Of a DNA stretch of 40,352 nt, positions 30,063 through 30,959 are shown piece by piece. The DNA is from Escherichia phage Dewey. Every line of letters begins with the position of its first letter. The stretch's first letter is position 1. Made by a program: the position numbers and the translations under genes. The notes under the pieces were generated by a model. That model was not told where the DNA came from, did no database searches, and was given only the letters and a program-made list of their open reading frames with translations. The stretch is taken from sequence record PQ850600.1; one strand, 5' to 3'.

Positions 30063-30959
30063 GTGGACAAAATGGCACGTTCAAGAAATATCAAACCAGG
30101 CTTTTTCACCAATGATGAATTAGCTGAGTGTTCTCCATATGCCCGTCTCCTTTTTGCCGGGTTATGGACCATTGCTGACAAAGAAGGGCGGTTGGATGAT
30201 CGCCCAAAGAAAATTAAAGCAATGGTACTGCCTTTCGATGATGTGGACTGCAATGATCTGCTTCAGCAGCTTCACAGTCACAAATTCATCAACCGATATC
30301 AGGTAAATGGCGGCTCATATATCCAAATCAATAACTGGAAAAAGCACCAGAACCCTCACTGCAAAGAAGCAGCCAGTGAGATACCAGAACCAGTAGAGAA
30401 CAATAACAGCACCATGCAAGTACAGTGCAAGGACGATAAAGAGGAAGAGAAGGAGGATGCCGAATCACTGCAAGTCATTGAAAACAATGAAGCACCAGAA
30501 AAGCACCATGCAAGTACAGTGCAAGAACCAGTAGAGAACAGTTTAAATCCTGCTGATTCCCTTAACCTGATTCCTGATTCCCTTAACCTGATTCCTGATT
30601 CCCTTTCTAACACCCAAGCCGCTGACGCGACTTGTGAAGGTGGTGGGGCTGATGTCCATAAAATTTCAAGTCGCTATGCATTCGAAGGAAATATCGTTCG
30701 GTTAAACCACAAGGACTACGAAGCATGGAAGCGCCTGTATCCGAACATTGACCTGAATTACGAGCTGGAAAGGCTGGATATCGAATTTAGCCATGAGAAG
30801 CCAAAGAACTGGTTTATCACTGCCAGCCAGAAACTCAGCTACCAGAACAAGCAGGCGTTATCCAGACCGGTACGCAAGGTTGCTAATGGACTTAAGGCTG
30901 AAAACTTTGCCGCCAAAGATTACGGGCAAACTGAAATGCCTTCATGGGCGCAGGAGTGA
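30063..30959 (+). CDS. replication initiation / replisome-organizer protein
   Basis: 298 aa; N-terminal NIKPGFFTNDELAECSPYARLLFAGLWTIADKEGRLDD; central repeat-encoded linker; precedes DnaC-like gene. Confidence 0.65.
   Translation: MDKMARSRNIKPGFFTNDELAECSPYARLLFAGLWTIADKEGRLDDRPKKIKAMVLPFDDVDCNDLLQQLHSHKFINRYQVNGGSYIQINNWKKHQNPHCKEAASEIPEPVENNNSTMQVQCKDDKEEEKEDAESLQVIENNEAPEKHHASTVQEPVENSLNPADSLNLIPDSLNLIPDSLSNTQAADATCEGGGADVHKISSRYAFEGNIVRLNHKDYEAWKRLYPNIDLNYELERLDIEFSHEKPKNWFITASQKLSYQNKQALSRPVRKVANGLKAENFAAKDYGQTEMPSWAQE
30553..30608 (+). repeat. iteron-like direct repeats (candidate origin) inside the replication initiator gene
   Basis: GATTCCCTTAACCTGATTCCT x2 plus partial third copy; additional duplicated 16-22-nt blocks at 30378-30431 and 30497-30536. 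Confidence 0.5.

Follow-up and report, generated by a model that had tools for sequence, protein, structure and literature searches.

The principle of placing origin repeats inside the initiator gene is already known. In phage lambda, ori consists of four palindromic iterons of about 19 base pairs (bp) that lie inside gene O beside a region rich in adenine and thymine (AT), and the partner of the initiator is the loader P. In Bacillus phage SPP1 (oriL and oriR), the repeats bound by G38P occur once inside the initiator gene and once in distant non-coding DNA. The omega repressor of pSM19035, from the inc18 plasmids, is a ribbon-helix-helix dimer that serves both as a repressor and as a centromere-binding protein, and its heptads (WATCACW) are found in promoter regions. 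In many RepA_N plasmids, the origin reportedly lies in the central part of repA, as Weaver and colleagues are said to have described in 2009. RepA_N replicons combine a conserved N-terminal domain, which binds semi-palindromic iterons, with a host-specific C-terminal domain (PMC7145576). Here we analyze a stretch of 40,352 nucleotides (nt) from Escherichia phage Dewey (PQ850600.1; the whole stretch is called the window below), in which a gene at the position of a replication initiator contains a two-part module: six partly palindromic 11-bp units, then an array of the heptamer TGATTCC in fixed register with them, inside the DNA that encodes the linker of the protein. These repeats are almost certainly a cis element that exists at the nucleotide level and is coupled to the N-terminal domain (N-domain) of the protein, and the module as a whole (30491-30605) is probably the replication origin of the phage.

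The gene and the parts of it that matter for the heptamer array are the following:

30072-30959 (stop included), plus strand: initiator-position gene, an open reading frame (ORF) for 295 amino acids (aa), with its ATG start at 30072 (MARSRNIKP...) and AAGGTGG before it.
30072-30386, plus strand: region coding for the N-terminal winged-helix domain (aa 1-105), including the invariant arm RxRNIKP and the tail KHQNPH.
30553-30605, plus strand: heptamer array, with TGATTCC at 30554, 30568, 30575, 30589 and 30596; its translation is DSLNLIPDSLNLIPDSL.
30606-30959, plus strand: region coding for the variable C-terminal domain (C-domain), which differs among family members.

Successive heptamers of the window array are spaced by 14, 7, 14 and 7 nt, so that paired units stand 7 nt apart and the filler CTTAACC between the pairs completes a unit of 21 nt. 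Tandem Repeats Finder reports this period at 30553-30605 (2.5 copies, 100% matches, score 106). The array occupies nt 482-534 of the 888-nt gene (the family median is nt 406), just past the winged-helix domain and in the linker-coding part, and it accounts for five of the 13 occurrences of TGATTCC on both strands of the window, all five falling within 49 nt (30554-30602). Exact local direct repeats of at least 14 nt are confined, within the 40-kb window, to the region of the initiator gene and to a CAGAGC tract at 7132; none was found in 20 shuffles, so the repeats are real and not a product of chance. The CAGAGC tract, a perfect hexamer repeat of 6.7 copies (7132-7171), is unrelated to the repeats of the initiator gene. 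Both analyses bear out the first-pass annotation in placing repeats inside the initiator gene. The 21-nt unit it had described as occurring two and a half times (GATTCCCTTAACCTGATTCCT) is indeed present, with exact copies at 30555 and 30576; the partial third copy, however, ends at 30605 rather than at 30608, and the elementary unit is not the 21-mer but the 7-nt heptamer TGATTCC.

Megablast of the gene against isolated phages gave full-length matches in close relatives only; in phages of Vibrio, Acinetobacter and Pseudomonas, 60 nt with the tandem repeat match at 98-100%, at the same position of the gene. The products of these genes are 33-37% identical to the window protein and end in a different C-domain, and it is exactly after the heptamer array that the C-domains change. 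The exact 22-mer CTGATTCCCTTAACCTGATTCC was found in more than 120 viral contigs among the matches listed, and it lies in an open frame in each of the 123 loci examined; wherever this ORF was complete within the examined DNA (118 of 118 loci), it starts with MARxRNIKP.

For an unbiased sample, the search was made with the N-terminal 105 residues only, taking one genome per species and keeping the best 80 of 286 relatives, which yielded 72 non-identical full-length genes with a guanine-plus-cytosine (GC) content of 0.37-0.67. Searching by the N-domain instead of by the repeat removes the bias of a repeat-based search. The sample spans Gamma-, Beta- and Deltaproteobacteria and Bacillota, including isolates of Shimazuella, Laceyella and Pelosinus, as well as metagenome-assembled genomes assigned to Acidobacteriota, Actinomycetota, Saccharibacteria, Planctomycetota and others. 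Whatever the GC content, two to five copies of TGATTCC follow just after the N-domain coding region in 69 of the 72 genes. The density of the heptamer in the linker is 7.26 per kb; elsewhere in these loci it is 0.138 per kb, which makes a 53-fold enrichment.

The codons of the recurrent peptide LIPDS indicate what is being conserved. Of 69 such peptides, 62 are encoded by the identical 15-mer CTGATTCCTGATTCC, with ATT for Ile and GAT for Asp in all 69, CCT for Pro in 68 and TCC for Ser in 65, the last against a background of 12%. In the same genes, the invariant residues of RxRNIKP and HQxPH are written with all synonymous codons, at near-maximal entropy. Frozen synonymous sites beside free codons at other invariant residues show selection on the nucleotides and not on the peptide. 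Heptamers are read as xxT GAT TCC (DS) 143 times and as CTG ATT CCx (LIP) 91 times, and never in the frame that opens with TGA; at the position where this third frame would fall, GGATTCC stands in 18 of 26 cases (peptide ADSGFLIPDS), and otherwise a filler such as CTTAACC. Successive heptamers in the sample are spaced by 7 (94 cases), 14 (59), 21 (19) or 15 nt (12). An uninterrupted 7-nt tandem run puts TGA in frame at every third unit, so that an array inside a gene needs every third heptamer altered, to GGATTCC or, in the window, to CTTAACC; as a consequence, the 21-nt unit and the peptide DSLNLIPDS are imposed on the protein. The 21-nt unit is thus the coding-compatible form of a 7-nt tandem array.

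Upstream of the heptamers, the window contains two clusters of a second repeat class:

30491-30556, plus strand: proximal array of six 11-nt units (AGCACCAGAAA, AGCACCATGCA, AGTACAGTGCA, AGAACCAGTAG, AGAACAGTTTA, AATCCTGCTGA), in fixed register with the first heptamer.
30386-30440, plus strand: distal cluster of five 11-nt units (AGAACCAGTAG, AGAACAATAAC, AGCACCATGCA, AGTACAGTGCA, AGGACGATAAA), containing the first copies of two duplicated blocks.

Stacking six units in register with the first heptamer gives the family consensus AGCACnGTGCA, which holds the palindrome GCACnGTGC. Over the 80 nt before the first heptamer in the 69 genes, the mean autocorrelation at lags 11, 22 and 33 is 0.47, 0.42 and 0.44, compared with a background of about 0.25; lag 11 scores highest in 59 of these 69 genes, which had been chosen by their N-domain alone, and the corresponding values in the window are 0.45, 0.43 and 0.42. 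This 11-nt periodicity is held in fixed register with the heptamer array across phyla. Since 11 is not a multiple of 3, the units of the window are read in all three frames (APEKHHASTVQEPVEN). The sites on the minus strand that look like terminators (30409-30428 and 30503-30522) merely reflect the palindromic 11-nt units and were discarded. Two blocks of 16-22 nt had also been reported as duplicated about 100 nt upstream of the 21-nt repeats. Exact duplicates do exist, AGAACCAGTAGAGAACA (17 nt) at 30386 and 30524 and AGCACCATGCAAGTACAGTGCAAG (24 nt) at 30408 and 30502, but they are pieces of the 11-nt-period arrays. The distal cluster is degenerate in HK639, in Hafnia phage yong1 and in the Salmonella relatives; it is therefore peculiar to this lineage, having arisen from the proximal cluster by duplication or conversion. 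For the same reason, we rejected the distal blocks (30386-30440) as conserved extra iterons of the family.

The repeats are not bound to the coding context. Viral contigs were scanned for three uninterrupted copies of TGATTCC, a run that cannot be coding on that strand, and perfect arrays of 3-11 units were found in 67 of them. In 36 of the 67, an N-domain gene (expectation value, E, about 1e-43) lies within the examined DNA, in most cases 2-4 kb from the array; these genes encode a protein of 239 aa whose linker has no heptamers, and here too a DnaC-like gene follows them. In one clade, the gene is free of repeats and a perfect array of 5-11 units is intergenic, with a copy number that varies between close relatives. 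Locus L250 keeps the array in the linker but inverted, where it encodes ESGIRNQESGIS, and in L259 the ORF encodes the N-domain alone, with an intergenic array after it and then an AT-rich stretch and a primase-like gene. The module can therefore leave the gene, and it then becomes a perfect tandem array. Such co-occurrence of the N-domain with the repeats, inside or outside the gene, is one of the properties expected of origin repeats bound by an initiator.

These arrangements bear on the idea that the peptide itself is what matters, (D)SLNLIPDS being a short linear docking motif in a disordered linker and the DNA identity incidental. The motif does sit in a low-confidence, presumably disordered linker, and it may bear a loose likeness to hydrophobic docking motifs such as the clamp-binding QLxLF. 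Nevertheless, the synonymous sites of the LIPDS codons are frozen, one heptamer encodes two peptides in two frames, a whole clade without the peptide keeps the DNA array outside the gene, and the inverted array encodes ESGIRNQESGIS instead. The codon statistics, the use of two frames and the out-of-gene and inverted arrays essentially refute a peptide motif, which we consider extremely improbable.

Changes in copy number raise a further question. Near-identical proteins of Salmonella prophages differ in length solely through the number of 21-nt units in their genes, which ranges from 1.5 to 6.5, and locus L242 (about 1672-1730) has one extra uninterrupted TGATTCC, with which the N-domain ORF ends at TGA and the C-domain continues in the +1 frame. 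The databases contain many N-domain proteins of no more than 100-180 aa; a 7-nt unit gained or lost could toggle the product between full length and the N-domain alone, or these could be pseudogenes or sequencing errors. The variable copy number, the frame shift in L242 and the exact switch of C-domains after the array would all suit a hotspot of recombination or slippage that no protein binds and that allows the exchange of N- and C-modules, the tuning of linker length or frame switching by copy number. We regard such a hotspot as quite unlikely, for it leaves unexplained that the exact heptamer is conserved across phyla at 37-67% GC, that perfect arrays of 5-11 units are kept in non-coding DNA after the gene lost them, and that the 11-nt units stand in fixed register.

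Additionally, the repeats covary with the subfamily of the N-domain. Subfamilies at 35-43% identity, from phages of Streptomyces, Arthrobacter, Klebsiella, Vibrio and Ralstonia, lack TGATTCC; where the module would stand, they have 11-nt units of the form TGAGGACTCAg or GCACGCGTGAG and, after these, the short repeats GGGAACA (an example being gp39 of Streptomyces phage Austintatious) or GGGAAG. A repeat sequence that shifts when the N-domain shifts is as expected of a cognate pair of protein and DNA.

Regarding the protein, PHROG 17247 matches it over its full length, and its first 100-170 aa match five PHROGs annotated as 'replication initiation protein'. No Pfam family was found at E<=0.01 and none of relevance at E<=10, nor was there a match in NCBIfam; in particular, the protein matches neither Phage_rep_O (lambda O) nor RepA_N (PF06970, none at E<=10), and the Phage_rep_org_N and DnaD models found no sequence match in it. 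Residues R3, R5, N6, I7, K8, P9, H92, Q93, P95 and H96 are invariant in two family alignments. An AlphaFold2 model of residues 1-125 (predicted local distance difference test, pLDDT, 86.6) shows a winged helix and then a disordered linker. A sequence search of the N-domain against solved structures gave nothing meaningful; by structure comparison, its best match among them is the iteron-binding N-terminal domain of plasmid RepA, and its neighbours among predicted viral structures are named replication protein, replisome organizer or DnaD-like. The corresponding gene of Escherichia phage Louie is 99.4% identical, has the same neighbours and is annotated 'replication initiation protein'.

The window is the genome of a lambdoid temperate phage, with the gene order cI, cro-like ORF, cII, HNH, initiator-position gene, DnaC-like gene and then NinB and Dam. 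The features around the initiator-position gene are:

27839-28540, minus strand: cI-type repressor gene, of the lambdoid control region.
28885-29238: cII, between the cro-like ORF and the HNH gene.
29260-30060, plus strand: HNH endonuclease gene (Pfam HNH, 1e-13), directly upstream of the initiator gene.
30962-31807, plus strand: gene for a DnaC/IstB-like ATPase, a helicase loader (Pfam IstB_IS21, 1.9e-18, and Bac_DnaA; PHROG 50, DnaC-like helicase loader, 3.5e-86).

For the DnaC-like gene, the ORF list gives a start at 30944; the ATG at 30962 was chosen, matching the annotation of Louie. The gene at 30072-30959 therefore fills the slot of lambda O, between cII and the DnaC-like gene, whose product is probably the partner of the initiator. 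Relatives encode a DnaC-like loader, a DnaB-like helicase or 'replication protein 14' at this downstream position, and partners exchanged in this way fit a replisome organiser with a swappable C-domain. In a single-sequence search, a loader or helicase gene stood immediately downstream in 23 of 76 diverse loci, as the DnaC-like gene does in the window. The position, the PHROG matches, the annotation in Louie, the fold and the neighbours together support the view that the 295-aa protein is an origin-binding replisome organiser, although they do not prove it.

Two side observations concern the gene end and its neighbour. The final 60 nt of the gene (30900-30959) are 97-100% identical to the 3' ends of unrelated 'O-like' initiator genes in mEpX1, N7 and CurroJimenez_Bas106; these match only query positions 838-897, and their genes precede the same DnaC-like gene. 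The shared segment is either a mosaic joint or a common tail for docking the loader. As for the HNH gene, a homologue of it is the immediate upstream neighbour of the N-domain gene in 6 of 76 diverse loci (L157, L182, L185, L186, L189 and L200), an HNH endonuclease is annotated directly upstream in JBD44 (L277 56-802) and next to the match in Bordetella IFTN phages, and PHROG 5718 matches N-domain and HNH protein alike, which suggests that fusions of the two exist. The HNH protein could be a homing endonuclease that travels with, or targets, the conserved initiator gene, or it could be an accessory replication nuclease.

In this regard, the heptamers might be recognised by something other than the initiator: a host factor of conserved specificity, the HNH endonuclease, which would home to them or nick them, or a packaging protein. 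The upstream HNH homologues, their annotation in several isolated phages and the double match of PHROG 5718 speak in favour of the endonuclease, yet most members of the family have no HNH neighbour. No sequence resembling a DnaA box is present, no factor but the N-domain accompanies the array in all of its arrangements, and the repeat sequence tracks the N-domain subfamily. Another recogniser is, in our view, very improbable.

Taken together, our findings allow us to propose a model in which the winged-helix domain of the gene's own product would bind the repeats and oligomerise on them, while the C-domain would recruit the DnaC-like loader encoded downstream and thereby the DnaB helicase of the host. 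We infer both that the N-domain binds the repeats and that this binding starts replication.

Several observations weigh against taking the module for an origin. There is no AT-rich unwinding element beside the window array, the GC content being 0.42-0.52 on both sides; in the family average, the AT excess is only 5-6%, at 80-240 nt upstream of the array, and no AT-rich flank is conserved. Neither DnaA boxes near the region nor promoter-like sites adjoining the array were found in the window. Winged-helix proteins do not usually engage double-stranded DNA at a spacing of 7 bp, and the target of the N-domain could be either repeat class. Myxococcus phage Mx8 p19 (L275 2971-4152) is a family member with no evident heptamers or 11-nt repeats. 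Lastly, the searchable literature, which leaves most subscription journals outside, holds no replication assay, binding assay or origin mapping for any member of the family. Of the other signals looked for, out-of-gene arrays have a modest AT excess (+0.14) 30-60 nt away, no known RNA family was found in the region, and a search of a plasmid collection for a minimal plasmid with an N-domain gene as its sole Rep returned nothing but records of phage size and one linear assembly fragment of 6.2 kb, and hence no evidence for a mini-replicon that is autonomous. The Mx8 protein has a domain inserted after the N-domain (RWVYFVRAESGGPVKIGTAANVEHRLASLQTG...), which may resemble a GIY-YIG/T5orf172-type module.

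A last point against origin function comes from the surroundings of the out-of-gene arrays: about 55 bp downstream of them stands a promoter-like site whose inverted-repeat operators vary, a setting that fits a transcriptional role too. In this clade (L244 7700-7990 and the related loci L206-L262), the inverted repeat GGCCTAGGACnGTCCTAGGCC is conserved on one side of the array. On the other side, about 55 nt away, an A-tract and a sigma-70-like promoter (TTGACA, 17 nt, TAATGT) face an ECF (extracytoplasmic function)-sigma-like gene, and the promoter overlaps inverted repeats of which at least three versions exist, interchangeable in the manner of immunity operators. The N-domain protein might accordingly use the repeats as an operator or enhancer array, regulating its own gene or a neighbouring operon, with the origin elsewhere; the established fact that iteron-binding Rep initiators of plasmids often autoregulate lends this some weight. 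On the other hand, the array lies in the middle of the ORF in the window and in most members, where the window offers no promoter-like site, and the neighbours are replication genes rather than regulators. A purely regulatory array is thus unlikely, and a regulatory role would in any case be compatible with origin function.

Long and complex arrays of TGATTCC-like units mixed with other short repeats (e.g. gattcctgattcaggattcccttctctgattct...) were seen in L246, L205, L220 and L234, with no N-domain gene within the examined DNA of these loci. They may represent other uses of the heptamer, or loci that extend past the examined DNA.

Beyond a role as the origin of this phage, the 11-bp units, the heptamers and the cognate winged helix might together form an ancient, portable and so far unnamed replicon core, a reading that we consider possible and put forward tentatively. 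Judged by sequence comparison, the core would be common, nearly letter for letter, to temperate phages of Pseudomonadota and Bacillota, and would also occur in assemblies of several other phyla. Within such a core, the heptamers may nucleate a helical filament of the initiator with a 7-bp period or may be read as single-stranded DNA, like DnaA-trios; either would be a way of recognising an origin that has not been described among phage initiators.

The family (PHROGs 17247, 16167 and 12556) is large. An N-domain profile collects 31,891 clusters at 50% identity with E<=1e-3, and 7,164 with E<=1e-30, yet neither Pfam nor NCBIfam has a model for it, and nearly all matches with a source name bear the label 'hypothetical protein'. 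Its hallmarks, all of them present in the window, are RxRNIKP and HQxPH in the protein, at least two heptamers, spaced by 7, 14 or 21 nt, just after the N-domain coding region, five or six 11-nt units in register before the first heptamer, and a gene for a helicase loader or helicase as the next one downstream. The literature within reach of our search contains no description of the heptamer, the LIPDS peptide or the 11-nt units. Of particular interest are the nucleotide identity of the repeats across phyla and the plain mark that a DNA signal has left on the sequence of a protein. If the module is an origin, an N-domain gene with TGATTCC preceded by 11-nt units would locate the origins of tens of thousands of unannotated prophages and phages. 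It would also be an unusually clear case of a DNA signal dictating amino acids ('LIPDS') of the protein that reads it, and would show that the specificity of initiator for origin is fixed across phyla while the host-facing C-domain is swapped. The findings also suggest a portable replicon core, possibly of broad host range, and they account for the recurrent low-complexity peptide LIPDS in database proteins labelled hypothetical.

Like lambda O and ori, the locus has its repeats within the gene of the initiator itself, where that gene encodes the linker joining the DNA-binding domain at the N-terminus to the loader-recruiting domain at the C-terminus, and it occupies the same slot of the lambdoid map, following cII and preceding the gene of the helicase loader. 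The proposal of the first-pass annotation that an origin candidate lies in the initiator gene gains from the O-slot position, the selection at the nucleotide level and the co-occurrence with the N-domain; its comparison with iterons of lambdoid origins is not supported. The window protein has no homology to O, as the Pfam search indicates, and its partner is DnaC-like and not P. In place of 19-bp palindromes, the window has six 11-bp units and contiguous 7-bp units, with no AT-rich region or DnaA box adjacent, and TGATTCC is conserved across phyla, whereas repeats of the lambda type are specific to each phage.

The two locations of the SPP1 repeats parallel the in-gene and out-of-gene arrangements seen in the TGATTCC family. 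However, the genomes of this family that we examined have the array in one place only, and there is no sequence relation to G38P.

With RepA_N systems (pSK41, pTZ2162, pAD1 and the Vibrio PLE RepA), the family has in common a conserved N-domain, a variable C-domain, which in RepA_N systems differs according to the genus of the host, and repeats in the middle of the gene. It differs in having two repeat classes, one of them a 7-bp tandem array, and in being found mainly in the replication modules of temperate phages, in many phyla.

Finally, the heptads of omega resemble the array described here in being contiguous, unspaced 7-bp repeats of variable number and either orientation, on which omega is bound cooperatively with one small protein per heptad. 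Omega is not a winged-helix initiator, the sequence of its heptads is unrelated, and its arrays lie in promoters and not in a gene. Nonetheless, omega on its heptads indicates that a protein polymer can read a 7-bp periodicity on duplex DNA.

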